DNA of 64,000 nt from a virus, in the IMG/VR virus record IMGVR_UViG_3300035703_000025, positions 61,472-125,471 of that record. The stretch is one strand, 5' to 3'. Below, piece by piece: positions 25,530 to 39,287 of the stretch (positions are counted from its first letter, which is position 1; each line of letters begins with the position of its first letter). Position numbers and translations under genes: made by a program. Below the pieces are notes generated by a model, which ran no database searches, was not told the origin of the DNA, and saw nothing but the letters and a program-made list of their open reading frames with translations.

Positions 25530-27074
25530 TTAACTTATTTCTGTTAAAGACTCTACTGACCATCCACTTCCGGTTCCTCTTATGGTAAACTCATATTTGC
25601 CGTCCTTTCTAATTTTTGATTTGTGTTTTGCGTATGCATTTGGGAAAATAACGATTCTTATGCTGCCACTTGAGTCAGTAATGTTTATTTGACACATTTC
25701 CTGGCCAGGATTTTCACCCTTCTTCGTGACTGTAAACGTTGTGTCTACAATTGATGCAATAACCCTTTTTGTGATACCTTTGTTGTTTCGCAGCATCCTG
25801 TGGCAATCCTTGCATGTAAAGTCAGCTATATCTTTGTACTCGTCTACTGCGCTGCAAGTCATTGCAATAGACAAAAGTTCTTGTTCACTAGAGGCCTTCC
25901 AGTCAGTTGTGTCCTTTGCGTTTTCATCTATTGCATCAGCCTCAGATTTGACTATTGGCTTTCTCTTTTTAGTACTAATAGTCTCAGAACACTCAATCAT
26001 TTTTTGCTTAATTAATGATACCGAGTTGTTCGGTTCATTTTTACAAATTTCGTCCACAACGTACTTAACCTCTCTTGGTGTTAGTTCGTTCATGGCACCA
26101 ACGACATCAAGCATTGTTTTTCTTCCAATTCCGTACAAATCACAAGCCCCACTTTTTATTAGGGATTCTACACCAAGAGATCGCAAAGAATCATTTTCCC
26201 TATAGGCAAGGTTTATGAATTCAGAAAAGTGCTTTGGTCTATTCGTCTTTATTGTTTCCCAGTCCTTCTCTCCAAACTGCTTGATGTGGCTAAGACCAAA
26301 TATAATACTCTTTGAGTTATTATCGTTGACAATTTTAAAGTCTTTTGACGACTCCGTGATTGTTGGTGGAAGTATTTTTATACCGCAAAGCTTTGCCTCG
26401 TTAATCATATCGTGAAGCTCTTCTCTTGATTTTTGTCTAGCCTTGGAGTATGTTAGGTATGTGCAATAAAACTCATGCGGAAAGTTCGCCTTCATATACG
26501 CAGTTCTGTAAGACCACACTGCATATTTTTTCGCGTGAGCATCATTAAAGGCGTATCTTCCAGCGCTTTCAATCATTGAAAACAGCTGCTCTGCCAAGTC
26601 CTTTGACTTTCCATTTTTTACACAACCAGAAACAAACTTTTCACGAAGATCACTGATTACTTTATAATCCTTCTTTCCAATGCCCTTTCTTAGCTTGTCA
26701 ACAATAACTAGACGGTCAATATAAGGCATTTCCTTCCATGCGATCTCACCACCAAACTTCATTAGCTGTTCCTGGTAAATGAGAACGCCGCTTGTTGGTT
26801 GCAGAATGCGGTCAACGTCCTCGTCACCAAACTTGTGGGCAACATCTAGACCGTTCTTTACTCTCGCGTATTTTTCAGTCATTCCAGACTCAAGACACGC
26901 CGGTCTAATAAGTGCAAGAACCGCGCTAAGTTCATTTATGTTTTTAGGCTTTATCTTGGAGGCCCACTGCTTTCCAAGCTCGCTTTCGAGTTGAAAAACA
27001 CCGCCAGTGTTTCCACTTTGAATTAAGCGCCATGTTTTGTCGTTTTTAAAATTTACTTCTTCGATGTTGAACAT
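25530..27074 (-). CDS. dnaE: DNA polymerase III alpha, C-terminal part (fingers, HhH, OB)
   Basis: GVFQLES, LIRPACL, GVLIYQEQLM, YAFNDAHA, FGLSHIK and C-terminal OB fold. Confidence 0.92.
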   Translation of the reverse strand: MFNIEEVNFKNDKTWRLIQSGNTGGVFQLESELGKQWASKIKPKNINELSAVLALIRPACLESGMTEKYARVKNGLDVAHKFGDEDVDRILQPTSGVLIYQEQLMKFGGEIAWKEMPYIDRLVIVDKLRKGIGKKDYKVISDLREKFVSGCVKNGKSKDLAEQLFSMIESAGRYAFNDAHAKKYAVWSYRTAYMKANFPHEFYCTYLTYSKARQKSREELHDMINEAKLCGIKILPPTITESSKDFKIVNDNNSKSIIFGLSHIKQFGEKDWETIKTNRPKHFSEFINLAYRENDSLRSLGVESLIKSGACDLYGIGRKTMLDVVGAMNELTPREVKYVVDEICKNEPNNSVSLIKQKMIECSETISTKKRKPIVKSEADAIDENAKDTTDWKASSEQELLSIAMTCSAVDEYKDIADFTCKDCHRMLRNNKGITKRVIASIVDTTFTVTKKGENPGQEMCQINITDSSGSIRIVIFPNAYAKHKSKIRKDGKYEFTIRGTGSGWSVESLTEIS

Positions 27075-27077
27075 ACT

Positions 27078-27716
27078 TTACTCAGCTGTTATCTTGATCT
27101 TAGGACGTATCTTAAAGTTCATAAACGACATATACCGTTTAAACATTTCCGCCGTAATCTTCACGTCCTCAAGCGCGTCGTGAGTCTCAGATGTCCTTTT
27201 CATACCAAGTAAACCAGCGTAAGTGTCTAGTCTGTTATTTTTAAGGTTATCCCTGCCAAAAATAGAAAACATCATGGGCATCATATCGAGTTTTATGTTT
27301 GACCACGGGCAATCATTTTTGCCATTAATTATCTTGTATTTGCGCATCCAGTATTCAACAAATCTATCGTCAAAATTACAATTGTTATAGCCAACAATTA
27401 TGGGATATTCCCATGGATTTTCAGAAGGGTTTGATATAGAGAGATACTCTTTAAACTTTCTAAGAGCTGTCTTTGGGTGCATTCCATCGGTTTGCGCTTT
27501 TGTCCAAAGATCTTGGCCAATTACTTGTATTGCTTTAGCGTCAGCCTTTTCAGGACTTTGTGGTTGAACGGTAATGCAAAATTCGGGAATTGTTTTTGAT
27601 ATTTCGTAATCCGAGTAATTAAGTGTTACTGCAGCTATTTGAACTATCTCGGCACCGTTTTCATAATCTAGACCAGTGGTTTCAATATCGTAAACAACGA
27701 AATTCCTCTTGTTCAT
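27078..27716 (-). CDS. dnaQ: DEDDh 3'-5' exonuclease (DnaQ/epsilon-like)
   Basis: VYDIETTG, GYN..FD, HDALED motifs. Confidence 0.88.
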   Translation of the reverse strand: MNKRNFVVYDIETTGLDYENGAEIVQIAAVTLNYSDYEISKTIPEFCITVQPQSPEKADAKAIQVIGQDLWTKAQTDGMHPKTALRKFKEYLSISNPSENPWEYPIIVGYNNCNFDDRFVEYWMRKYKIINGKNDCPWSNIKLDMMPMMFSIFGRDNLKNNRLDTYAGLLGMKRTSETHDALEDVKITAEMFKRYMSFMNFKIRPKIKITAE

Positions 27717-27721
27717 GTAGG

Positions 27722-27741
27722 ATTGTAGTGTTCGTGTATTT
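27722..27741. promoter_or_regulatory. Back-to-back divergent promoters: CTACAAT (-) and GTGTATTT (+)
   Basis: CTACAAT 5 nt before the dnaQ ATG; GTGTATTT 14 nt before ATG 27748. Confidence 0.6.
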
Positions 27742-27747
27742 AATTTT

Positions 27748-28410
27748 ATGGATCAAATGCGATTGGGCATAATAAAACACATTAACGCGGCAGCTGAGAG
27801 CTTTCCTGCCCGTTTTGACGAACCAAATGTGCCTATAGACGCAACACCAACACACTCTTTGTCAGCCCCATCAAAGTTTGATTTATGGATGTCAAGTATA
27901 CTTGATTCAATAATCCGAAGATTTGGCGGTATAAATAACGCGATAATTTATTTTTTAGTAAACAGGCTTGGATTTACGCAACAATTGGCTGAAATGCTTG
28001 TTGTGCATCTTACGCTTGTTGAAAACATCTTGTGGGATCTGTCTGTATGGTTTTATTTGGGAAGACAAACAGATGTAGTCTCAGAGATTGTCAGGTCAAT
28101 AATATGGAGTTTTGTAAATGCTCTTAATCTTCCACTTGGGTCTGACGCAGAGCAGCTTGTTGCAAGAGTCGCAATTTCTATACAAGATGGCCTAACAGAA
28201 AACTTATGGACACCAACTGTTGTTGGAGAGGTTTGTGCTGCTTTACAACGAGGATGGACTTTGCAGCAGATACTAAGCTGGATGCAGCATCTAAGCCGTG
28301 GTGGTACTTACTATCACTGGCCTGACACGTGGTCTGAAGCTGAACTAGAAATACGGGAAAGAGAAGAAGAAGACAGAGAAAACAGCGAGGCTGGGCTAGA
28401 AAATGAGTAA
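27748..28410 (+). CDS. Helical hydrophobic hypothetical protein with basic leader and acidic tail
   Basis: 220-aa ORF after a late motif. Confidence 0.7.
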   Translation: MDQMRLGIIKHINAAAESFPARFDEPNVPIDATPTHSLSAPSKFDLWMSSILDSIIRRFGGINNAIIYFLVNRLGFTQQLAEMLVVHLTLVENILWDLSVWFYLGRQTDVVSEIVRSIIWSFVNALNLPLGSDAEQLVARVAISIQDGLTENLWTPTVVGEVCAALQRGWTLQQILSWMQHLSRGGTYYHWPDTWSEAELEIREREEEDRENSEAGLENE

Positions 28411-28960
28411 ACTAGAAAGATTAATCAAAAAACACATTACGTTGTTTGCGCGTCAAGAAACGCAAATTGCGCCAGGCTCACAATCGCCAACTAGTCTTTC
28501 ATGCAACTGCTGCATAGAAGGCACAGATCAACTAAGCATAACTAAAATATGCGAAGCGGTCAAGCAGCTGTCTAGCTCTGTTGGAAGCCCTGGATCTAAT
28601 CAGTGCGCAAAAGACATTAAGAGAAATAATACTAAGCCGTGTTCGACAAATAAGTTTACTAAGGGTAATGTAATAATTGACAAATGCAAGCTTTATGCTG
28701 GGTCTGTAGTAGCCGCTTTGCCAGCAAGCTCAACAGAGCAGCAAAAATCAGAAGCGTCAAGAAAAGCAGAGTGTGATTGTTTAAATAATGCCATTTACGG
28801 CTCGCCAGACATAAACGGCTTGGGTTTTCCAGGAGCGATAATGGGTCAGCAGGTTTTGGATTTTTATAGAGATGGCTGCTCTTATACTTGGATTAGTACC
28901 GTGTGTGGAGAGAGACAAAAGGTTATCGATAGAAAAGGCTTACAGCATCTTATGTGCTGA
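28403..28960 (+). CDS. Cys-rich protein with basic leader
   Basis: 185 aa, about 12 Cys; overlaps the previous gene. Confidence 0.7.
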   Translation: MSKLERLIKKHITLFARQETQIAPGSQSPTSLSCNCCIEGTDQLSITKICEAVKQLSSSVGSPGSNQCAKDIKRNNTKPCSTNKFTKGNVIIDKCKLYAGSVVAALPASSTEQQKSEASRKAECDCLNNAIYGSPDINGLGFPGAIMGQQVLDFYRDGCSYTWISTVCGERQKVIDRKGLQHLMC

Positions 28961-29588
28961 TGTGTGAAAAAGCAGCCTCTATTTCTTTTGGTACACAATT
29001 AAACCGCCCCTTTAGGGACGGTTTTACTTTATTTATAATCGATCTTTTCCTCTCGAAGGAGTCGCCAATCCATTTACCAGTATTACAAAGAACCCAGTAT
29101 TTGTAAAGCGTTATCGCGGCGGATCTTTTGTAAGCCTCAACGTTTATCGGTAGCCCAAATTTTCTTATAGTTTTAACGGCTCGCCTTTCGCAGTCAAGCT
29201 CGCAGGCAATAGTTTTTTTAGTGTAGACACGGCGTAACCGCTTGTTGTAGTTTGCTTCGCCGTTTTCAAGAAGGGAAAGCTTGTAAGTTGCGTCCTCACC
29301 GCCTTTAAGAAACGTGTTCGTGTAAGCCGGAGATCGCTCTATCCATTGCATCATGTGGCAGTACTCGTGCACAAGAAACCCAAGCCATTCGTGAAGCGGC
29401 CTGTCGCCCCTGGCAACCACTATGGTTTTTTCGTTATCAGAATCTAAAAAGTATCCACAGCAAAGGGTGTTACCAGCAGGCTCCCTGACGTTGTTGCTAT
29501 TTTTTATTTTTACAACTACTCCGTGCTCTTTTGCCACAGCCTTAACGTGAGCGATAAAATCTTTAACCCTGCTTTCATTGCTCCCCAT
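28950..29588 (-). CDS. Zincin-type metallopeptidase-like protein (HExxH)
   Basis: LVHEYCH motif with downstream CELDCE. Confidence 0.7.
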   Translation of the reverse strand: MGSNESRVKDFIAHVKAVAKEHGVVVKIKNSNNVREPAGNTLCCGYFLDSDNEKTIVVARGDRPLHEWLGFLVHEYCHMMQWIERSPAYTNTFLKGGEDATYKLSLLENGEANYNKRLRRVYTKKTIACELDCERRAVKTIRKFGLPINVEAYKRSAAITLYKYWVLCNTGKWIGDSFERKRSIINKVKPSLKGRFNCVPKEIEAAFSHIST

Positions 29589-29594
29589 ATGCTA

Positions 29595-29654
29595 TAATAC
29601 ACTTAGACGGATCTTGTAGATCTGTAAAGTGCCCAGCGGTAATTTCGTGTATAT
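29595..29654. promoter_or_regulatory. Divergent pair of GTGTATWW motifs (- at 29595-29602, + at 29647-29654)
   Basis: 14 nt before ATG 29588 and 16 nt before ATG 29663. Confidence 0.65.
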
Positions 29655-29662
29655 TTAATGTA

Positions 29663-31777
29663 ATGCCAAGAATAAAGACAAAAAACTCCACAACATCTAC
29701 GTCAACGCCAGCAAGCGGATCTTTGCTGCAGGGAGAGCTTGCGGTAAACATAACAGACAAAAGACTTTTTGTTGGTAACGCGTCAGGAAATCCAGTAGAA
29801 ATCACAAATCAGGGTGTTACCGCTGTATACGGTTCAACAAGCGGTATTTACGTTACACAAGCAACTGGTTCCACAACAATAGGGCTTGATCCAGACGTTT
29901 ACGTAAGCGGATCGATGCACGTAAGTGGCGTTTTGACTAGTAACATAGGGGCGCTTAATCTTTTTGCGTCAGAGGATCCGACAACTGGGTGGAGCCATTG
30001 GATAACAGCACAATCGTACAATGGGTCATATTCACAGATAGCTGGAAACGACGTTGGTGATTTAATTTTCAGAACACAGTCAAACATTTTTGGGATTGAG
30101 CCTACTGGTGCTCTAGCTGTTACGCTTGATTCGTTTACTGCAACAACGGGATTTCTGTATCCATCACCACTAGATATTCGAATTGGCAACACTAATTCTA
30201 CAACAACGTTTCCTGGCGATGTAAACATAACAAAAACACTTACTGTTGACCACATCAATGGTGATCTAGACGGTTCTGTTCTAAAGGCGTGCAAGAACAC
30301 CGACTCTATAACTCTGCGAAAAGGCGACCCTGTTTTTATTGCTGGCGTTGTTGGCTCTACTGATGTGATTGAGGTTCAGCTTGCGAGAAGCGACACCTCA
30401 GCAAAAATGCCAGCTGTTGGATTGTTATCTCAGCAATTAACAGCAAACGCAACAGGATACGTAACAGTAATTGGTACACTTGATGATGTTGACACTTCTG
30501 CATTTACCGTTGGTAATAGTGTGTTTGTTGCTTCTACTGGCTGGCTTACTGCTGTAAGACCAACAGGGGCAAGCATTCTTGTGCAAAACATTGGTCGTGT
30601 TGGCCGGGTAAACTCTAACAACGGCCAAATAGTTGTGCTTGGACCAGGCAGAACAAACGATGTTCCAAACAACATTTTAGCTTCTGGAACGCTTACTCTA
30701 GGAACCCCTGACATAATAACTCCGCTTGTTGGTACAGCAAGCGTGTTTAACACAAACGTTTCAAGAGTAAACATAGGAACTTCGGCAAGCGGTATACAAA
30801 TAGGTCACGCGACTGGTGTTGTCACAGTTGGTGACCTCTCTGTTAATGACGGAACTATAACAACAACCGCAGCATCTGTAACTGTATTTAATACAACAGC
30901 CACAACACTTTCAATGGGCGGCGCTGCCACAACAATGACTATTGGCGGCACCACATCAGCAAGCACTTTAAACATTGGAACTGGCGCAAACGGAGCTGGT
31001 GTAACAAAGACAATAAATATAGGAACTGGCGCTTCTGTTGGTTCAGCAACAACAAACATAACGATAGGTCCAAACATAGCGTCTACTGGCACGGTAACAA
31101 TAAACGGTAGAACAAACGTAATAGGACCAAACGCAACAGGAATAACAATTGGTGGTCTGCAACTAGACACAACCGTTGGTAGCAGTACTGGGTTTATAGA
31201 TATTGGAACAAACTCGGTTTTTGGTGGCCACAAGATAATAAACATTGGAACAAACGGAACTTTTGGTAATAGCCAAATAACAATCGGAAATACTCTAGGT
31301 GGGCTTATCCTTAAAGGGTCTTCGGCAAGCGGGGTTATCCTTGATTCAGGACCATTGAGAGCGTTAGGCCAATCAATAATTACAAGCTCTGATGTTAGAG
31401 CAACAGGATCTGTTGTTGGTTGGGGCAGCGTACAATCTACTGGCCACATGCTTGCCGCAAGCGGATACCGCATAACATCAAACGCAATAAACGCACAAAC
31501 CGCAACGGGTTACACACTACAGGCTTCGGATAACGGAAGAGTAATAACTTTTAACAGCGCAGGAAGCCACACGCTGCGAATACCGACTGGCCTTGACGTT
31601 GGATTCAACGCCACAATAATTCAGCTTGGAACTGGACAAGTAACTTGCACTGGTCTTTCAGGAGCAACACTAAACTGCTACGCATCTGGAAACAAGATAA
31701 GCGGACAGTTTGGAGCAGCAAGCGTAATTTGCTACGCAACAGACACATACAATTTGGCAGGAACACTCACAGTATGA
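29663..31777 (+). CDS. Tail fibre / virion appendage protein
   Basis: N-terminal GELAVNITDKRLFVG fibre motif; KGDPVF…MPAVGL domain; (I/L)NIGT beta repeats; C-terminal YTLQASDNG…IIQLGTGQV domain. Confidence 0.8.
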   Translation: MPRIKTKNSTTSTSTPASGSLLQGELAVNITDKRLFVGNASGNPVEITNQGVTAVYGSTSGIYVTQATGSTTIGLDPDVYVSGSMHVSGVLTSNIGALNLFASEDPTTGWSHWITAQSYNGSYSQIAGNDVGDLIFRTQSNIFGIEPTGALAVTLDSFTATTGFLYPSPLDIRIGNTNSTTTFPGDVNITKTLTVDHINGDLDGSVLKACKNTDSITLRKGDPVFIAGVVGSTDVIEVQLARSDTSAKMPAVGLLSQQLTANATGYVTVIGTLDDVDTSAFTVGNSVFVASTGWLTAVRPTGASILVQNIGRVGRVNSNNGQIVVLGPGRTNDVPNNILASGTLTLGTPDIITPLVGTASVFNTNVSRVNIGTSASGIQIGHATGVVTVGDLSVNDGTITTTAASVTVFNTTATTLSMGGAATTMTIGGTTSASTLNIGTGANGAGVTKTINIGTGASVGSATTNITIGPNIASTGTVTINGRTNVIGPNATGITIGGLQLDTTVGSSTGFIDIGTNSVFGGHKIINIGTNGTFGNSQITIGNTLGGLILKGSSASGVILDSGPLRALGQSIITSSDVRATGSVVGWGSVQSTGHMLAASGYRITSNAINAQTATGYTLQASDNGRVITFNSAGSHTLRIPTGLDVGFNATIIQLGTGQVTCTGLSGATLNCYASGNKISGQFGAASVICYATDTYNLAGTLTV

Positions 31778-32673
31778 TTGTTCTACCTAGCGCTAAATAT
31801 TTTTCTTCGGTGCCTAGTGTTGCGGAAATAGCTAGGTTTAAAACTAATAGAAGCACCGCGACTTTTGGCGGTCTTAATTCATTTTATGTTTTTACAACAA
31901 CAGGATACGCTGCAGTAACATGGTGGGATGGCGTTACAACAATTTATGGAAGCGGTAATCCAAATGCTCAAATTTTCATATCAAAATCTGTTGTGGCCCC
32001 GTATAACACAACAGCAGAAAAAGATTTTTCTGTTTATTCTTGTGATGTTACTAGCAAAATAATTGGATACATCACAAATATAACGTTTAATTCAAGTTCA
32101 AGATCACCAATAACTTTTATTGATCATTATTCCTTATCACAATTAAGCATTTTCTTTTGTGATTCTGGCACGGGATTGACATCTTATAGGCACAACGGTA
32201 GAATAAATTCATTGAGTTTATCAAGTACTGGCTTAACAAGTCTTGATCTTAGCAATGGGCAGAGATTATATTCTGTAAATTTACCTAACAACTTGCCGCT
32301 TACTTCAATCACTGGCGTGTCTTCGCTTCAAAATCTAGAAATTTTTAACGCTAATGGTGCTGGAATAACGTCTATTGATTTTTCTGGTTTACAGAGACTA
32401 TACGACATCGACTTAAGAAGTTCTTATTTGACATCAATACGAGCTGTCGGGTGCTCTTTAGTTTCTGATTCTTACTCAACCTCTAGTTTTTTCGTTGGTG
32501 GTGCAAAATTGCAAAACACTGGTTTAAATTCAACAGCTATAAATCAGTTTTTTACAGACCTTGCTAACGGTGACGGGTATATAAACATAGGCTGTGCAAC
32601 AGGTGCTGGATCAGCAGACTCATCAATAGCGACAGCTAAGGGATATACGGTTCTAGGAAACGTGCCGTGTTAA
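31774..32673 (+). CDS. Leucine-rich-repeat-like protein
   Basis: Start reassigned to ATG 31774 (ATGA overlap); LSLSSTGLTSLDLS, LTSITGVSSLQNLE and ITSIDFSGLQRL repeats. Confidence 0.7.
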   Translation: MIVLPSAKYFSSVPSVAEIARFKTNRSTATFGGLNSFYVFTTTGYAAVTWWDGVTTIYGSGNPNAQIFISKSVVAPYNTTAEKDFSVYSCDVTSKIIGYITNITFNSSSRSPITFIDHYSLSQLSIFFCDSGTGLTSYRHNGRINSLSLSSTGLTSLDLSNGQRLYSVNLPNNLPLTSITGVSSLQNLEIFNANGAGITSIDFSGLQRLYDIDLRSSYLTSIRAVGCSLVSDSYSTSSFFVGGAKLQNTGLNSTAINQFFTDLANGDGYINIGCATGAGSADSSIATAKGYTVLGNVPC

Positions 32674-32676
32674 AAA

Positions 32677-33333
32677 ATGATTTACTTTATAACACCAAAT
32701 TATAGTCTAGCGTTTATACCAAAGTCTGGATGCTCAACCTTATCTAGGTGCGTAATAAAAGCCTTTCAGCCAACTGAGGAGTCTTTAATTGAAAATGCGG
32801 ATTTCCCAGAAGGAAAAAACGCAAACAATTCAATGTGGCAAACATATGTACTAAGGGAAAAATATCCATCAAAACCCATACTTGCAATGATACGGGATCC
32901 AGTAGAAAGATTCCGATCTGCAGTTTCTCAATTTAAAACTAATGACGTTGACTCAATTATTAACTCGTTAATTAATAATACCGCCTTTGATTCTGGTGGA
33001 AAGCGTCGAAAGCAAATAATTGCTAGTAAAAATAGACACTTTATGCCGCAGATCCTTTGGGTTGACGTAAACACAAAGCTTTATAAGTTTCCAGAACACA
33101 TAAACGAGGCGGCTGCTGAGATAGGTTTTATACTGCCGCTTCCTCAAATAAACGCAGCGTCTTATCCAAAGCCAACCCTTACGGCCGAGCAGACAGCTGT
33201 TTTGGAGGAGTATTACGCAGAGGATATTGCGCTATTTGAGTCAATTGTTTCTCCTGGAATAATAACAGGGGTGATTTCGGCAAATCCAGTGAGTCTAGTT
33301 CCTCCAGTTATTCCTGATGATGAGGAGCCTTAA
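32677..33333 (+). CDS. Sulfotransferase family 2-like protein
   Basis: FIPKSGCST (5'-PSB), IRDPVERFRSA (3'-PB) and HFMPQ motifs. Confidence 0.8.
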   Translation: MIYFITPNYSLAFIPKSGCSTLSRCVIKAFQPTEESLIENADFPEGKNANNSMWQTYVLREKYPSKPILAMIRDPVERFRSAVSQFKTNDVDSIINSLINNTAFDSGGKRRKQIIASKNRHFMPQILWVDVNTKLYKFPEHINEAAAEIGFILPLPQINAASYPKPTLTAEQTAVLEEYYAEDIALFESIVSPGIITGVISANPVSLVPPVIPDDEEP

Positions 33334-33338
33334 AATTT

Positions 33339-33346
33339 GTGTATAA
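33339..33346 (+). promoter_or_regulatory. GTGTATWW late-promoter-like motif
   Basis: GTGTATAA, 14 nt before ATG 33353. Confidence 0.65.
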
Positions 33347-33352
33347 TAATAC

Positions 33353-33634
33353 ATGGGCTTAGCTAATAACAAGATTAAGAGCGCACTGAGAAAATTGCAA
33401 ATAGCAATGGGGACAGAAATAACCTCGTACAAAGGTATAAAGGTTGGCGATCGCGTAAAAGACGTAAATCAGCAGTGCATGCATTACGGCAGCGTAGGGG
33501 TCGTTACTATGATTGAGGCCCTGCCAGAAAACAGCGGATACCTTATTCATTATACCGTAGAAAATGACGGACCTTCGTATGGCCCAGGAACAGTGCTCAA
33601 AAAGACAGAAGATCAATTGGAAAAACTATCATGA
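33353..33634 (+). CDS. Small SH3/KOW-like protein with basic leader
   Basis: IKVGDRVKD…GSVGVV. Confidence 0.65.
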   Translation: MGLANNKIKSALRKLQIAMGTEITSYKGIKVGDRVKDVNQQCMHYGSVGVVTMIEALPENSGYLIHYTVENDGPSYGPGTVLKKTEDQLEKLS

Positions 33635-33864
33635 ACGAAGAAGAAAACGATTACGATTACACACCACAGCAGCCAGCGGTTGCTAGCATTTCCGAGGGCG
33701 ACATAGTTAGCTGCGGAAACAAGGACTCGGTTAACTTTGGCGTCTGGGGCGAGGTTTTAGAGGTTAACTCAGGAATTGCAACCATTAAAATAATGAATCC
33801 TGAGTTTCCTCGCAACACTGGCTGGACCATAACGGAGAGTGTTGAGGGTCTGGAGAAGTTATGA
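33631..33864 (+). CDS. Small acidic SH3/KOW-like protein
   Basis: ISEGDIV…GVWGEV; similar to the previous gene, both end in LEKL. Confidence 0.6.
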   Translation: MNEEENDYDYTPQQPAVASISEGDIVSCGNKDSVNFGVWGEVLEVNSGIATIKIMNPEFPRNTGWTITESVEGLEKL

Positions 33865-34250
33865 ACGATTCGGAACTTGACGTAATTTTTGCTTCAGAGA
33901 AAGCCCAGGCAGTTGAGTATCAGGGTAAAAAAGTAACCCTAAATCAACCAAGACGAATAGGTAAGGGCGATCCTGGCTACGGGAAGAAGAAATTCTACGT
34001 TTACGTCAAGAACGATCGCGGAAATGTTGTCCGCGTAATGTTCGGTGATCCAAACATGGAAATACGACGTGACGACCCAAAGAGAAGAAAAAATTACAGA
34101 TCACGTCACGGGTGCAGTAATCCTGGTCCAAAATGGAAGGCTAACTACTGGTCCTGCAAGATGTGGGAAGCTAAGAAGTCTGTTACTGACTACACAAGCA
34201 GCTCAGTAATTTCTTCTTTTATTAAAGCAATAAACGAAGCTTCTATTTAG
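33861..34250 (+). CDS. Conserved basic phage protein (EYQG.KV.LN.P…FGDPNM…RH.C family)
   Basis: Motif set recognised from large-phage head-associated proteins. Confidence 0.7.
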   Translation: MNDSELDVIFASEKAQAVEYQGKKVTLNQPRRIGKGDPGYGKKKFYVYVKNDRGNVVRVMFGDPNMEIRRDDPKRRKNYRSRHGCSNPGPKWKANYWSCKMWEAKKSVTDYTSSSVISSFIKAINEASI

Positions 34251-35053
34251 GCTTCCATCCCGCCACCAGCATCTTGCGGGGGATCTTGATTTAGCCAAGC
34301 CAATAGGGCCATAAGTATAACTCCAGTAGCGCCAGACGCAATGCCGACTGGAAGGCCAAGGCCGCTAAGTGCAGCAGCTAGACCTAATAACACAGCAGCA
34401 CCAGCGATTACCCAAAGCACAGTTCTATTTGTTTCTGCCCACGCTGCTATTTCTGCCGCAATACTAGGACTTGAGCCTGGCTGATTTAAAGCCCAAAGAT
34501 AAACGGCTGCTACTGTTGCCGCAGAGGTTCCGTAGTTTACTAGCCATCTCAGGGCGTCGTCCTGATTTTTTTGCATAATGTATTTGCCAATCAAGTCCTC
34601 AATGGTTATAGCCATACCGTCTGAGATTCTTCTAAGCTCGGCAACAAACTCTGGATTTTCCAAAACTCCATCTCTGCAGTTTTTAGGTAATGATTGAAAT
34701 ATTTGCCGGAGAGCCTCTGCCGCCGCAGCAAACTCATTTTGGCTAGCCGCTTCATTTAATTTTTTCATCGCTGCGCTTAAAGACTCAAGAACCCCAGCTA
34801 GTCTTCTTTTGCAGAACGGATCAAGGTATTTCCAAAGAGATCTCAATGCCCAAACTAGAATTGGGGCAAGCGAAAGCCCTGTAATCCATTTTTCCCAGGC
34901 AATTTCGGTTTCCTTGTCTGGTTTTTCTGCTGGTTCGCTAACAGGACCTATGTCTTCAAATGTTTGGGTCTGGCCTGGCGCTAAAACAGTATCGCCTCTT
35001 TTTGCTGCGACTTTTGCTATGTAATTAAAAAGCTTTACGTCTTTACTGTTCAT
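34247..35053 (-). CDS. Membrane-inserting protein with C-terminal hydrophobic hairpin (paralog of 35050-36015)
   Basis: 268 aa; long Ala/Gly/Leu hydrophobic segments. Confidence 0.7.
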   Translation of the reverse strand: MNSKDVKLFNYIAKVAAKRGDTVLAPGQTQTFEDIGPVSEPAEKPDKETEIAWEKWITGLSLAPILVWALRSLWKYLDPFCKRRLAGVLESLSAAMKKLNEAASQNEFAAAAEALRQIFQSLPKNCRDGVLENPEFVAELRRISDGMAITIEDLIGKYIMQKNQDDALRWLVNYGTSAATVAAVYLWALNQPGSSPSIAAEIAAWAETNRTVLWVIAGAAVLLGLAAALSGLGLPVGIASGATGVILMALLAWLNQDPPQDAGGGMEA

Positions 35054-36015
35054 GTGGCTGGCAATACTTGTCTAGCTATTTGCTGAATTATTTCATTTAT
35101 TCTCTGAATAGCTGCTGAACTCAAACCAGCGCCAGCAGCAGCAGTAGATATTATCCCGCTAGCTGTGGAGCTAAGCCAAGCAGCAATACCAGCTACAGTA
35201 CCGCCAGCCAGGAAGAACGCGCTAAGACCAATAAGAACGGCGGTTAGAACACCAACAATTACAGTATAACCAACGCCATACTCTTCTACAAAACCCTGAC
35301 TAAGCACTTCTGCTGCTAGAACAAGCGCTGCCTCTCCTGCTCCAGCACCAAATTGATAGACAGCTGCTGCAATCGCAGCACCAAATGCATACAAATCCCC
35401 ATTGTTTAAAAACGAATCCCAGAAACGCTTAATTGATTCAAGTAGCTCTTTTGGTAGATTCGGGAACTTTGATACAAATGTGGCGTACATTAGATCTTTT
35501 ATGAATTTGTCTAGGGTTCCATCAGCAATGCATCTTCTTAATTGCCGCTTAACGTCCTCAATATTTGGATCAGAAGAATAAAGATTGTCTACTGCCCTAT
35601 TTAAAGTGTCTCTGTAGTTTGATGATTGCCATTTTTGCCAAAGCTCTCTAGCCTTCATCAAGGTATCACCAGTAGATGGATTTCCACTTAAGTAGCTTCC
35701 TATGGTGCCACCAAAAACGCCTTGAACCATTCCGTTTAGTAGTTGAAGGAAAGGGCCTTTGAGATATCTACCGAAAAGCTTAAGGCATTCTTTTTTCTTT
35801 CCTAGATATTTTAAAACTTGGTCAACGATCCAACTTAAGCCAGTAAATACTCCCATTCCGCCCAAAATACTGATGGCCCACCAGTCTGATTCGCCAAGAC
35901 CTAAAAAAGAACCACCTTCTTCAGCCTCGCCAGGAACACCAGTGGCCAGTTGAGTCTGGTCTTCTCTTGCTAAAGCAATTTGATTAAGCGTTTTTATAAA
36001 GCGGAAGCTTTCCAT
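35050..36015 (-). CDS. Membrane-inserting protein with C-terminal hydrophobic hairpin
   Basis: 321 aa; several hydrophobic helices; late motif upstream. Confidence 0.7.
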   Translation of the reverse strand: MESFRFIKTLNQIALAREDQTQLATGVPGEAEEGGSFLGLGESDWWAISILGGMGVFTGLSWIVDQVLKYLGKKKECLKLFGRYLKGPFLQLLNGMVQGVFGGTIGSYLSGNPSTGDTLMKARELWQKWQSSNYRDTLNRAVDNLYSSDPNIEDVKRQLRRCIADGTLDKFIKDLMYATFVSKFPNLPKELLESIKRFWDSFLNNGDLYAFGAAIAAAVYQFGAGAGEAALVLAAEVLSQGFVEEYGVGYTVIVGVLTAVLIGLSAFFLAGGTVAGIAAWLSSTASGIISTAAAGAGLSSAAIQRINEIIQQIARQVLPAT

Positions 36016-36021
36016 ATAGCG

Positions 36022-36029
36022 TAATACAC
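36022..36029 (-). promoter_or_regulatory. GTGTATWW late-promoter-like motif
   Basis: GTGTATTA, 14 nt before ATG 36015. Confidence 0.65.
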
Positions 36030-36030
36030 G

Positions 36031-36237
36031 CTAATCTTTTAGTGTGAAAAACTTTTTCTTGTGATGCGCAAGCTTTGCGTACTTTAATACATCAATAACA
36101 CTGTCTATTTCTTCAATAGAAGATAGGAAAACAGAGCTGCTATCAGACTTAAGCTCTATGCTGTATTCCCTTTCAATTATTTCAATTCCGCGAACTTTAT
36201 GACGTGCTTTTACGGTTCCAAAGTTATTGAAATTCAT
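36031..36237 (-). CDS. Hypothetical protein
   Basis: Likely start at ATG 36237 (MNFNNFG…). Confidence 0.55.
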   Translation of the reverse strand: MNFNNFGTVKARHKVRGIEIIEREYSIELKSDSSSVFLSSIEEIDSVIDVLKYAKLAHHKKKFFTLKD

Positions 36238-36421
36238 TTTTTTCTCTAGGGTCACAGTTAATCTCAACCCCATCAACCTTTGTAAATGTCTTTGCGTAAT
36301 CTATGGCTCTAGTCCAAAGCTCGTAGTCCATCTCTTTAGTGTATTCGGCAAACTTAAGACCAAATATTATCATGGCCTTTGCAAGCCTTGGGTCCATATC
36401 GCGCATGTCTATATCATCCAT
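36224..36421 (-). CDS. Hypothetical protein
   Basis: 65-aa ORF in operon. Confidence 0.6.
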   Translation of the reverse strand: MDDIDMRDMDPRLAKAMIIFGLKFAEYTKEMDYELWTRAIDYAKTFTKVDGVEINCDPREKNEFQ

Positions 36422-36422
36422 T

Positions 36423-37298
36423 TTAATTAAGTATCCATGTTTGAGGTCTATTATTCCATAGACCAGTATTTAATTGCGAATATCCTAAGTCTTTCATCGC
36501 CCTTGAAAAAAAAGAACCCATAGATGTTGATTTTATTTTAACATTGTTTCTTTTGTAAACATCAAAGTGACCAATTGCTTTTGCGGTAAAAGCATTTGCG
36601 ATAATCATTCTTTTTGGTTTAATTGCTTTAAATATCTCGTTAAGATGATCAATTGGGTCTTCGAAGTGCTCAAAATACTCAGAAGCAAACGCAACATCTA
36701 CATTGGTAGCTATATCTGCAGCGCTTTCAACAAGACCGAAATCATATTCATTTGATAAAAAGCTAGCCACCCTCCATTGATCTGATGCTATGATATTTGT
36801 TCCAATCACAGAAGCGTCTGGAAAGGCTTGTTTAAAGGCTGCGCTTGTTATACCAATCCCATTGCCAAGATCAGCTATAATAGAGCCTTTTTTGATCTCA
36901 CCGAAAATTCCTCTAGGTATACAAACTGTGGGAATTGCAATTTCTTTTATGTACTTTCTTGAGTACACTAACCAACAAGCCCAAACCTCACTTAAATACT
37001 CTTTTTTGCTGTATATCTCATACGCGGGACTACCGCTAGATAAGCGATCGTACCAATCTAGCATAAGAAGCTCTAGTTCTTTTGACTTATTTCTTTTGTC
37101 CTTTGGGTTTTTAAGATGATCAATAGTTTGCTTTGCAATTTTTAAAAGATGGTCTGTGTCATCTATGCCAGAGCATTCTAGTATGCTCCTAAAAAACATT
37201 AGACCCTGTGAAGATGTCATATTCCAAAGCTTATAGCTAGGTTTAGAAAAAGAACACGCTCTTGTTTTTCTCTCAATATTGTTTTGAGTGATCTTCAT
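36423..37298 (-). CDS. Class I SAM-dependent methyltransferase
   Basis: IADLGNGIG motif I and FASEYFEHFEDP; AAGGA RBS. Confidence 0.8.
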   Translation of the reverse strand: MKITQNNIERKTRACSFSKPSYKLWNMTSSQGLMFFRSILECSGIDDTDHLLKIAKQTIDHLKNPKDKRNKSKELELLMLDWYDRLSSGSPAYEIYSKKEYLSEVWACWLVYSRKYIKEIAIPTVCIPRGIFGEIKKGSIIADLGNGIGITSAAFKQAFPDASVIGTNIIASDQWRVASFLSNEYDFGLVESAADIATNVDVAFASEYFEHFEDPIDHLNEIFKAIKPKRMIIANAFTAKAIGHFDVYKRNNVKIKSTSMGSFFSRAMKDLGYSQLNTGLWNNRPQTWILN

Positions 37299-37307
37299 GT
37301 TGTCCTT

Positions 37308-37342
37308 AAAAAGCCCATCAGAACAGTTACGAACTGATGGGC
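37308..37342 (-). terminator. Rho-independent terminator
   Basis: GCCCATCAG…CTGATGGGC perfect 9-bp stem followed by TTTTT. Confidence 0.85.
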
Positions 37343-37392
37343 AACTACGCGTAACTCAGACGGGCCTAAGATGCCCGAATAGCGTAATCACC
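37308..37392 (-). ncRNA. Candidate structured small RNA / riboswitch-like leader
   Basis: 11-bp P1 enclosing a CGGGC/GCCCG hairpin, overlapping a terminator; preceded by a GTGTATAT motif. Confidence 0.5.
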
Positions 37393-37395
37393 TAT

Positions 37396-37403
37396 ATATA
37401 CAC
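37396..37403 (-). promoter_or_regulatory. GTGTATWW late-promoter-like motif
   Basis: GTGTATAT directly after the dnaE-N stop codon. Confidence 0.55.
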
Positions 37404-39287
37404 TTAATCGTAGTACGAGTAAGAAAACTCCCCAAACTCAACTTCATCAAGTTTAAAATTAACCATGCGTTGTATTTGAAAAACCTTTTCTAGTGCTGTT
37501 ACGCCAAGTATATCAAATTTAACACCGCCTAAATATTCTATGTCAGCGCCTTCTACGTCTATTACCATAGCATCAAGCTTTTCTGAATAAACCATCGGGA
37601 ATAGGTTGCTCAGAGGCTGATCAGCAATAATGATTCCAGCAGCGTGCACACTTTCATTTCTTGGAACCTCTTCTATTCTTAAGGCGTAATCAAAGACCTC
37701 TTTGAACTGTTCGTAGTACTCAGCAATTGACTTAATGTTATCTATATTCCAACGAATAATTCCGTAAGACGGATCTTCTTTTTGCATTTCAACAAGATCA
37801 TCTGAAATCTTCGCTTCTTCAGCAAACTTTTTTGTGATTTGATTTGAAACATCAAAATAATCTGGTGTCGGTTTTAGAAGCTTAAATACTTCTTTTATTG
37901 CGCCACGGCCTTTAAATCTTGAGTGAGTAATAATGTGACCAACACAATCACTTCCGTATTTTTTGCTAATGTACCCAATAAGTGACTCTCTGAAAGATGG
38001 TGGCACATCCATATCGATATCTGGTAAGGAAACGTTTTCTTTTGTGTTTCTGCCTTCATTGTAAAATCTTTCAAATGGAAGTTCTCTCCCTTGGTCATAG
38101 CCAAGTGTTGGGTCTGGTCGCATCGGATCAACGGAAGAAATACCAATGAGATACGAGATCATGCAGCCAGAAGATGAGCCTCTAATGTCTGCTGGAACCC
38201 CCTTTGATCGAAGACTGTTTATGATATCATGAACAATCAAAAAGTAAGCTGACATGCCAGCTTGCTTGAATACCTCAAGCTCGTGCTGTATTCTTTTAAC
38301 GTAAGCTTCCTTTAGGGATGGATCTTGCTTAAACTCTTGAAGAAGACCGGTTGACTTAAAGCCAGACCTGCAAAGTTCGCGCAGATACTCGTGTGGATCA
38401 ACTATTTTGTGGTCTCCAACTTTAAAGCTTGCAAGAATTGGTCGTTCTTGAATTGAGTAGTCTTCAATAAGATCTAAAAGCTTAAGGGTTTTTTCTCCTC
38501 GCTTAAGCTCCTTTGATAGATATCCACGAGACCATCGCTTGTCAAATATGCGAGAATCGTTCATTGCCTCGCAACAAGACCCGCCATCTTCCTTAGCCTT
38601 TGTTAAAAGCTCGTGAAGCTCAATATCTTCCTTATTAAGGTAATGGATATTATGCGAAGGCAGGGCATCTTCAAAAGATTCGCTTATTCTCTTACCAAGA
38701 ACAAGATGGGCTGGAAGAAGGCTGACGTCATAAAACAAGAATACGTTTTCGTATATCTTCTTATAGTTCTCTAGAACTTTTTCAATACGAGACTTCCAAT
38801 CTTTGTGCAGCAGCGTTTCGCACTCATCAGCGGAGTCACTCAAGTAAGCCATTTCGTGGTTTACAAAAGCGCTTGAATAAATTTGGCTCTTAAGATCCCC
38901 AACAAGACAAATAAGACCAGCTTTATATGGATACAGTGACTCTATTTGTGTTCTAGGCATTCCATTAAGTGAAAGGGCCTCCTTTGTCCGGGCCATAGAC
39001 ACAAGTTTAACTATGTTTTTATAGCCTGTTTTATTCTTTGCAAGAAGGGTTATTCGCCCAACAAAATTATCACCACTGTAGGTGTCAAGCTCTACTCCAA
39101 TTATTGGTTTGATGCCAGAGGCTTTGCATTCTTTGAAGAACGGAACAACACCTTTGATATTGTTGTGGTCTGTCATACATATTGCTGGTATGCCGTACTC
39201 TTTGCTCTTTGCAACAAGAGAATCAATTGTTACAACGCTATCAAGAAGTGACCACGCGGTGTGCACATGAACAGGAATATAGCTCAT
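37404..39287 (-). CDS. dnaE: DNA polymerase III alpha, N-terminal part (PHP + palm/thumb)
   Basis: HVHTAWSLLD, TDH, RGSSSG, FERF, catalytic PDIDMD, HAAG, KFDILG. Confidence 0.93.
   Translation of the reverse strand: MSYIPVHVHTAWSLLDSVVTIDSLVAKSKEYGIPAICMTDHNNIKGVVPFFKECKASGIKPIIGVELDTYSGDNFVGRITLLAKNKTGYKNIVKLVSMARTKEALSLNGMPRTQIESLYPYKAGLICLVGDLKSQIYSSAFVNHEMAYLSDSADECETLLHKDWKSRIEKVLENYKKIYENVFLFYDVSLLPAHLVLGKRISESFEDALPSHNIHYLNKEDIELHELLTKAKEDGGSCCEAMNDSRIFDKRWSRGYLSKELKRGEKTLKLLDLIEDYSIQERPILASFKVGDHKIVDPHEYLRELCRSGFKSTGLLQEFKQDPSLKEAYVKRIQHELEVFKQAGMSAYFLIVHDIINSLRSKGVPADIRGSSSGCMISYLIGISSVDPMRPDPTLGYDQGRELPFERFYNEGRNTKENVSLPDIDMDVPPSFRESLIGYISKKYGSDCVGHIITHSRFKGRGAIKEVFKLLKPTPDYFDVSNQITKKFAEEAKISDDLVEMQKEDPSYGIIRWNIDNIKSIAEYYEQFKEVFDYALRIEEVPRNESVHAAGIIIADQPLSNLFPMVYSEKLDAMVIDVEGADIEYLGGVKFDILGVTALEKVFQIQRMVNFKLDEVEFGEFSYSYYD

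Follow-up and report, generated by a model that had tools for sequence, protein, structure and literature searches.

The question raised by this locus is what the 105-nt gap (37299-37403, minus strand) behind the gene for the N-terminal half of DnaE (dnaE-N) encodes, and whether it acts on the methyltransferase gene that follows. The viral record concerned is 125,471 bp long, has a G+C content of 42.7% and carries direct terminal repeats; the window, that is the whole 64,000-nt stretch of DNA analysed, makes up its right half (C1:61472-125471), where non-coding gaps of at least 70 nt are very few and this gap is one of them. A previous sequence-only reading had proposed a structured RNA at this place, either a stand-alone RNA of about 85 nt or a riboswitch or attenuator controlling the methyltransferase gene, with a leader peptide as an alternative. 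The phage has no cultured relative detectable by megablast, blastn gave one 23-nt chance match only, and tblastn of DnaE-N against cultured phages returned nothing above 30% identity. All the sequence features described in that reading were found in place; they are given below with the features added by our analysis, every coordinate of the element being on the minus strand.

37404..39287 (-): dnaE-N, 627 aa, with PHP and Pol III alpha palm/NTPase domains (Pfam PF02811, PF07733), matching positions 34-615 of the 1190 of phrog_405
37395..37403 (-): promoter-like box GTGTATATA, one copy of the recurrent GTGTATWWW
37403-37396 (-): GTGTATAT motif
37389 (-): predicted transcription start G, the sixth nucleotide after the box and first base of the 8-bp outer helix of hairpin 1
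37343..37389 (-): hairpin 1 (47 nt), outer helix GAUUACGC/GCGUAGUU, inner helix AUUCGGGC/GUCUGAGU, AUCUUAG in the loop
37392-37382 and 37350-37340 (-): P1, GGUGAUUACGC pairing with GCGUAGUUGCC, 11 bp with three G-U
37391-37356 (-): GTG frame of 11 codons
37377-37361 (-): inner hairpin CGGGC/AUCUUAG/GCCCG
37359-37355 (-): CUGAG
37356-37350 (-): AGUUACG, exact complement of CGUAACU at 37331-37325
37308..37342 (-): intrinsic terminator, 9-bp stem GCCCAUCAG (37342-37334)/CUGAUGGGC (37321-37313), 12-nt loop and U5 (37312-37308)
37307-37303 (-): AAGGA (Shine-Dalgarno, SD), followed by the ATG at 37298
36422..37302 (-): lineage-specific insertion of 881 bp carrying a 291-aa methyltransferase-like ORF (36423-37298)
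34247..36421 (-): downstream genes orf65, orf81, orf321 and orf268 (65, 81, 321 and 268 aa)

The stop codon of dnaE-N (TAA, 37406-37404) is adjoined without any gap by the promoter-like box, of which the GTGTATAT motif noticed previously is a part. GTGTATWWW occurs 25 times in the genome (both strands), against 9.2+-2.9 copies expected from 10 first-order Markov simulations; the other copies in the window lie at 2166, 8508, 15525, 16833, 27734, 29602 (-), 29647, 33339, 48622 (-), 52997 and 59604 (-). An ORF of at least 50 codons starts within 60 nt downstream of 22 of the 25 boxes, while the same holds for 38% of 5000 random positions, and the association has a binomial probability of about 3e-7 by our arithmetic. 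Seven copies have an ATG exactly 5 nt downstream and four others have one 6-7 nt downstream, a spacing which suggests the layout expected of leaderless messages; where the distance to the ATG is longer, an SD-like run is visible. When two copies lying antisense within genes (C1:117407 and C1:118650) are set aside, a purine occupies the sixth position behind the box in 21 of the remaining 23, and in seven this purine is the A of the ATG. From this spacing rule we infer a start at 37389 for the element. Across the same 23 boxes there is no -35 consensus, and because a -35 is missing a generic sigma-70 scan called no promoter at the element. Among the 10 box-led proteins scanned, the only ones with an annotation were the tape-measure and tail-fibre-like proteins, and in more distant relatives six of seven box matches precede ORFs. 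The box at 37403-37395 is the sole copy in sense context without an ORF behind it. A GTGTATWWW box with mostly leaderless spacing is thereby defined for this phage group, and it helps to annotate relatives.

Some side observations concern the same box. It is common to relatives down to about 57% DnaE-N identity. In the window, a divergent gap of 31 nt (27717-27747) has on one side a plus-strand gene starting at 27748 with a GTGTATTTA box 5 nt before its ATG, and on the opposite strand, as judged by eye, a TACAAT 5 nt before the ATG of an exonuclease gene, which may be a second, host-type leaderless promoter.

The region folds better than expected by chance. The 87-nt unit reaches -34.3 kcal/mol (z -4.59) and none of 200 shuffles was as good; the 53-nt core reaches -21.9 kcal/mol (z -3.40; 1 of 200 shuffles as good) and the terminator alone -17.6 kcal/mol (z -6.00). 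The terminator has a G+C-rich stem directly followed by a U-tract, and a compensatory change in its stem is described below. The predicted RNA, running from 37389 to about 37308 (82 nt), would consist of the 47-nt hairpin 1, the 30-nt terminator hairpin without any spacer, and U5. Inside hairpin 1, the proposed CGGGC-AUCUUAG-GCCCG hairpin is present as sequence; in the minimum free energy (MFE) fold, however, its 5-bp stem is replaced by the 8-bp AUUCGGGC/GUCUGAGU helix with an 11-nt loop, the outer helix being kept, and the two alternatives are nearly equal (-33.4 and -34.2 kcal/mol, a difference of 0.8). Pairing of the CUUAG of the loop with the adjacent CUGAG, which had also been suggested, would have to cross a 5-bp stem through a 1-nt connecting loop and appears sterically implausible. 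Concerning the sharing of one strand between P1 and the terminator, the overlap is real, but it amounts to the 3 nt GCC only, and the GGU which extends P1 to 11 bp and is the partner of this GCC lies upstream of the predicted start.

The element had not been recognised as a known Rfam family, and the scan agrees: Rfam 15 gave no match at gathering score over the whole window, and at E<=10 the interval 37250-37450 returned three nonsense matches to lncRNA and miRNA models only. ARAGORN found no tRNA in the window, and with the threshold lowered or the mitochondrial mode set its only calls on the element were of low score and meaningless. A tRNA-like reading was also dropped after comparison by eye with the anticodon arm of the phage's own tRNA-Lys(ttt), to which there is no real likeness. 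There is no second copy of hairpin 1 in the genome, the only other match of a covariance model being a terminator-like hairpin at C1:33888-33941.

Relatives were collected through DnaE-N from viral contigs (12 loci), and in all seven viral contigs which are at least 75% identical and extend past the gene end the element directly follows the dnaE-N stop. An exact 20-mer of the core recovered the same seven viral contigs and no prokaryote genome. Metagenome contigs added four carrier loci (L026-L029), one of them being the same contig as L016, so that the element is present in 11 of 11 relatives' loci reaching past the gene end at 75% DnaE-N identity or more, one pair being the same contig. Five marine relatives at 54-55% identity are without it. 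In a search with the C-terminal part, the L011 contig was the only one of the 11 loci listed to have the element, which is missing from nine loci of 67-76% identity and from one of 37%. Its occurrence is thus limited to a narrow freshwater clade. A search of viral contigs for the pattern of the two P1 strands with a variable gap gave at least 117 stretches, all attributable to chance, with a best interior score of 19/53 among the 115 screened. As a separate matter, a CRISPR-repeat or host source of the 5' strand was considered and rejected: a 17-mer gave 18 single-copy chance matches and none in multiple copies, and its match in a lake actinobacterial MAG lies within coding sequence, without further likeness.

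Only four distinct versions of the element exist. Compared with the window, dnaE-N has a third-codon identity of 0.662 in L014, 0.533 in L016, 0.526 in L026 and 0.459 in L011. In L014 the whole element is identical to that of the window, and in L011 hairpin 1 shows no change at any of its 47 positions, for which, at a neutral identity of 0.459, the probability is of the order of 1e-16 by our arithmetic; the group of L016 and L026 differs in hairpin 1 by a single C-to-U change and by 2 nt inserted into the internal loop. Identity to L011 is highest on the element, with bins at 96-100% among coding bins at 60-83%, whereas in 30-nt bins against L016 and L026 the element is not more conserved than coding sequence. 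The box keeps its six invariant letters in all carriers, which have GTGTATATA or GTGTATAAT, and only the W positions vary (TATATA; TATAAT in L026). The loop and upper stem of the terminator vary between relatives while the stem is preserved, through a compensatory G-C to U-A change in L011 and a U-A to U-G change in L016 and L026. Hairpin 1 shows no covariation among the four variants because its stems never vary. P1 is kept in every variant according to single-sequence folds, and apparently broken P1 pairs are alignment artefacts produced by MAFFT, which misplaces a 3-nt indel.

The sequencing runs listed as containing the stretch include none of RNA. Four lake DNA runs revealed one related strain, with 51 differences in 700 nt; among the 40 that were listed, 35 are in dnaE-N, five in the part belonging to the methyltransferase gene and none at 37292-37441. 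This mosaic pattern hints at exchange, and part of the element's identity could reflect recent exchange.

The methyltransferase gene itself belongs to the 881-bp insertion. Its product carries a class-I methyltransferase fold in the C-terminal half (Pfam Methyltransf_11, 24.5 bits, residues 143-229). Homology of the window to L014, L011, L016 and L026 ends at 37303-37307, past the terminator, and resumes at 36421; the methyltransferase cassette therefore entered exactly between the SD AAGGA and the orf65 ATG. In the four relatives the element precedes orf65 and not a methyltransferase gene, and the cassette is carried only by the window, by L003/L004 (the same contigs as L007/L008) and by the lake strain, so that the element predates the insertion. 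It was also observed that the inserted gene took over the SD, and that orf65 now starts 1 nt after the methyltransferase stop, without an SD of its own. Neither of the two distant methyltransferase homologues, L005 and L006, has the element upstream; as a side observation, by eye, L006 has at 2790-2880, before its homologue, a tRNA-like sequence with a GGTTCGAATCC T-arm.

A riboswitch for SAM, SAH or a similar ligand, controlling the methyltransferase gene by a choice between terminator and antiterminator, would account for the succession of promoter, structured leader, terminator, ribosome binding site and ORF, for the GCC common to P1 and the terminator, and for the complementarity of AGUUACG to the terminator loop in the window. 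It is largely refuted, and we consider it highly improbable, since the supposed target is a lineage-specific insertion younger than the element and absent from L014, L016, L026 and L011, neither of its two homologues elsewhere is accompanied by the element, and no riboswitch model of Rfam matches. In the RNA itself the terminator has a pair probability of 0.996, and forcing the AGUUACG:CGUAACU antiterminator gives -21.7 kcal/mol against -34.2 for the MFE fold, a cost of 12.5 kcal/mol. This complementarity, exact in the window as had been claimed, falls to six pairs in L016/L026 and to five of seven in L011, where two pairs are broken. The GGU partner of the GCC lies upstream of the predicted start, and there is no stem covariation. 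Neither mutually exclusive terminator and antiterminator folds of comparable energy, kept in relatives, nor a conserved association of the element with genes of SAM metabolism or methyltransferase genes was found. A METHYLTRANSFERASE switch is thus rejected and no switch is seen in the RNA itself, as judged from its sequence and folding, which removes a tempting but wrong link between riboswitch and methyltransferase.

The leader peptide fares no better. A leaderless micro-ORF in the 11-codon GTG frame (37391-37356) would agree with the leaderless starts that the phage seems to use, and the frame is open in all variants. However, its GTG stands 3 nt after the box, where real starts are 5-7 nt after it, and has no spaced SD; the L016/L026 group (the 89-90% group) carries a non-synonymous Pro-to-Leu change, while L011 has no synonymous change at all, its 100% nucleotide identity exceeding what coding needs. 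We regard this peptide as a very remote prospect. An antisense ORF of 39 aa was likewise discarded: it starts within the methyltransferase insertion and is not kept in L014.

The genes behind the terminator are more constant companions of the element. orf65 follows the terminator in all four element-bearing relatives examined, and the block from orf65 to orf268 is conserved in carriers; none of the four genes belongs to a Pfam or PHROG family. The block is without its own promoter box and its SD is no more than 2 nt from the U-tract, which leaves no room for a promoter between terminator and SD, and therefore the downstream genes need read-through. This arrangement shows that transcripts reach them only when the terminator is read through, whether they begin at the box at 37403 or in the dnaE-N operon. 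It was also observed that about 50 nt are shared, in different frames, by orf65 and orf81, in the window (36031-36421, minus strand) as well as in L014 (4970-5381); orf81 may truly start at an internal ATG (MNFNNFG...), or the two may be read together through a frameshift.

Other observations concern the surroundings of the element. The dnaE gene is divided into two genes (37404-39287 and 25530-27074, both on the minus strand) without an intein-sized extension, the C-terminal half matching positions 622-1086 of phrog_405 with finger, HhH and OB domains. In the relatives L048, L052, L031 and L034, dnaE-N, a DnaQ-like exonuclease gene and dnaE-C lie side by side in this order, and L033 has dnaE-N and then the exonuclease gene up to the end of the examined DNA. 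In the clade of the window about 9.7 kb (27717-37403) separates dnaE-N from the exonuclease gene (27078-27716, minus strand), and the RNA unit sits at the edge of this block. GC skew gives no origin signal at the locus.

Taken together, the element is a real, conserved small RNA unit that is absent from Rfam, and it is probably transcribed as a non-coding RNA of about 82 nt. The stand-alone RNA of about 85 nt proposed at the outset therefore finds good agreement in a box associated with gene starts, a predicted start at 37389, a strong terminator ending at about 37308 and conservation in relatives. The explanation that we prefer, put forward tentatively, is a promoter-proximal termination gate acting in cis and giving a short RNA as its product. 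The box GTGTATATA (37403-37395) would start an RNA at about 37389; since hairpin 1 is followed without spacer by a strong terminator, most transcripts would end at about 37308 as an 82-nt RNA of two hairpins, and the terminator would also halt transcripts arriving from the dnaE-N operon. The 3-4 kb behind it (orf65, orf81, orf321 and orf268, and here also the methyltransferase gene) would then be expressed by read-through only, and the unit would work as a premature-termination gate close to the promoter that also yields a small RNA. Hairpin 1, invariant in sequence, would be the part recognised by a factor or partner: its invariance, including loops and G-U pairs, points to recognition by protein or RNA and not to mere stability. 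That the short RNA accumulates, and that read-through is controlled at all, we infer from the layout; no fold competes with the terminator and therefore the sequence gives no sign of read-through regulation, and no candidate factor for such control was found.

The same promoter and terminator evidence would serve a trans-acting sRNA gene, in which a host or phage RNA is bound by base pairing to the exposed loop (AUCUUAG/AUCUUAGGCCC) or to the UCUGAGUUAC stretch and the downstream genes receive only the leak of the terminator. The loops are as invariant as the stems, which suits sequence-specific recognition, and the retained G-U pairs argue for a function on the RNA's own strand. Nevertheless we think it unlikely, since the RNA is paired over nearly its whole length, the rest of the phage genome has no complement of 9 nt or more to loop or linker, blastn-short within the phage gave chance-level matches only, and the top RNAduplex matches are GC artefacts in a 59% G+C region, with 5 of 25 shuffles as good. 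(On this region it can be noted separately that the 5 kb of G000:C1:33001-38000, to the left of the window, have 59% G+C against 42.7% for the genome and contain one of two tRNA-Arg(tct) genes; the phage encodes tRNA-Leu(caa) and tRNA-Lys(ttt) as well.) Conversely, the element may be nothing but the terminator of the dnaE-N operon with a 3' hairpin stabilising the mRNA, the box being the promoter of the next genes or fortuitous and the conservation due to short divergence or recombination. The terminator is indeed of the textbook kind, the element lies at a variable junction where gene content differs between relatives, the lake strain is a mosaic, and against L016/L026 the element is conserved no more than coding sequence (30-nt bins). 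However, a stabiliser needs structure and not sequence, whereas hairpin 1 has 0 of 47 changes against L011 at a third-codon identity of 0.459, and the adjoining terminator varies while hairpin 1 does not. Moreover, the order promoter, hairpin, terminator is the reverse of the usual one, terminator and then promoter, which occurs elsewhere in this genome (for example at C1:56827), and a box would fall by chance within the 12 nt available with a probability of about 4e-4 by our arithmetic. We judge a plain terminator to be rather unlikely as well. The idea of a viral sgRNA was also discarded, the RNA being without a 5' guide.

More doubtful still is a reading in which hairpin 1 would be a sequence-specific RNA switch module that, on binding a phage or host factor, turns off the termination next to it, or in which the host is the target of a trans-acting 82-nt RNA. 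In the trans version, the 5-bp stem with its 7-nt loop (U at 2, CUU, purine at 6) could serve as a decoy resembling an anticodon arm. If the switch existed, it would time the expression of the block of about 9.7 kb within the replication cluster of dnaE-N, exonuclease and dnaE-C genes, and either version, if true, would mean that this lineage of uncultured lake phages has an RNA family and a partner that are both new.

Several known systems can be set beside the element. The late promoter PR' of phage lambda gives a short terminated 6S transcript (PR'-6S-tR') which is extended through Q antitermination. The likeness lies in a short terminated RNA before a block of genes needing terminator read-through; however, no Q-like or N-like protein and no qut or nut signal was identified in our phage, and its other boxes have no terminator behind them, so that the likeness is one of possible working and not of membership. 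With the small riboswitches of Rfam the element shares a structured domain of about 50 nt before a terminator and a ribosome binding site, but it differs from SAM and SAM/SAH riboswitches, having no model match, no link to SAM genes in relatives and no competing fold. The PeSL promoter-stem-loop cassettes of T4-type phages are repeats in many copies. Like them, the element places a promoter box by a stem-loop at a junction of gene gain (the methyltransferase insertion); unlike them, it is single-copy and its stem-loops are downstream of the promoter and not upstream.

The closest comparison is with virulent Pseudomonas phages (phiKZ, PAK_P3, YuA and others), for which the portions of the transcript-mapping study considered here report 42 terminators inside 5'UTRs, 34 of them with a dominant short form below 250 nt and a read-through form, and 29 ncRNA candidates conserved within the genus, one 71-nt species showing more than 90% premature stops (PMC10914365). 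In both cases less than 250 nt lie between a promoter and a terminator that precedes a gene, so that a dominant short structured RNA and a read-through mRNA are to be expected, close relatives conserve the unit, and some of the Pseudomonas-phage RNAs also adjoin replication genes (PMC10914365). In our phage the box is statistically supported, the terminator ends 10 nt before the ATG and the start is predicted. The Pseudomonas-phage RNAs are mapped as transcripts, whereas the element is known from sequence alone and belongs to an unrelated, uncultured lineage of phage and host; its RNA would begin at the base of a hairpin without a single-stranded 5' part, unlike the ncRNAs described in those portions of the study (PMC10914365). 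As far as this comparison reaches, the best reading is that the element belongs to a known kind, the promoter-to-terminator leader or small RNA unit, as in Pseudomonas phages (PMC10914365).

The locus offers a testable freshwater example of such a promoter-to-terminator mini-unit, in which the conservation of the non-coding core equals that of second codon positions. Should the short RNA be confirmed, ncRNAs formed by premature termination would extend from cultured Pseudomonas phages to environmental phages, and the 47-nt hairpin would provide a defined bait for fishing out the factor that binds it.
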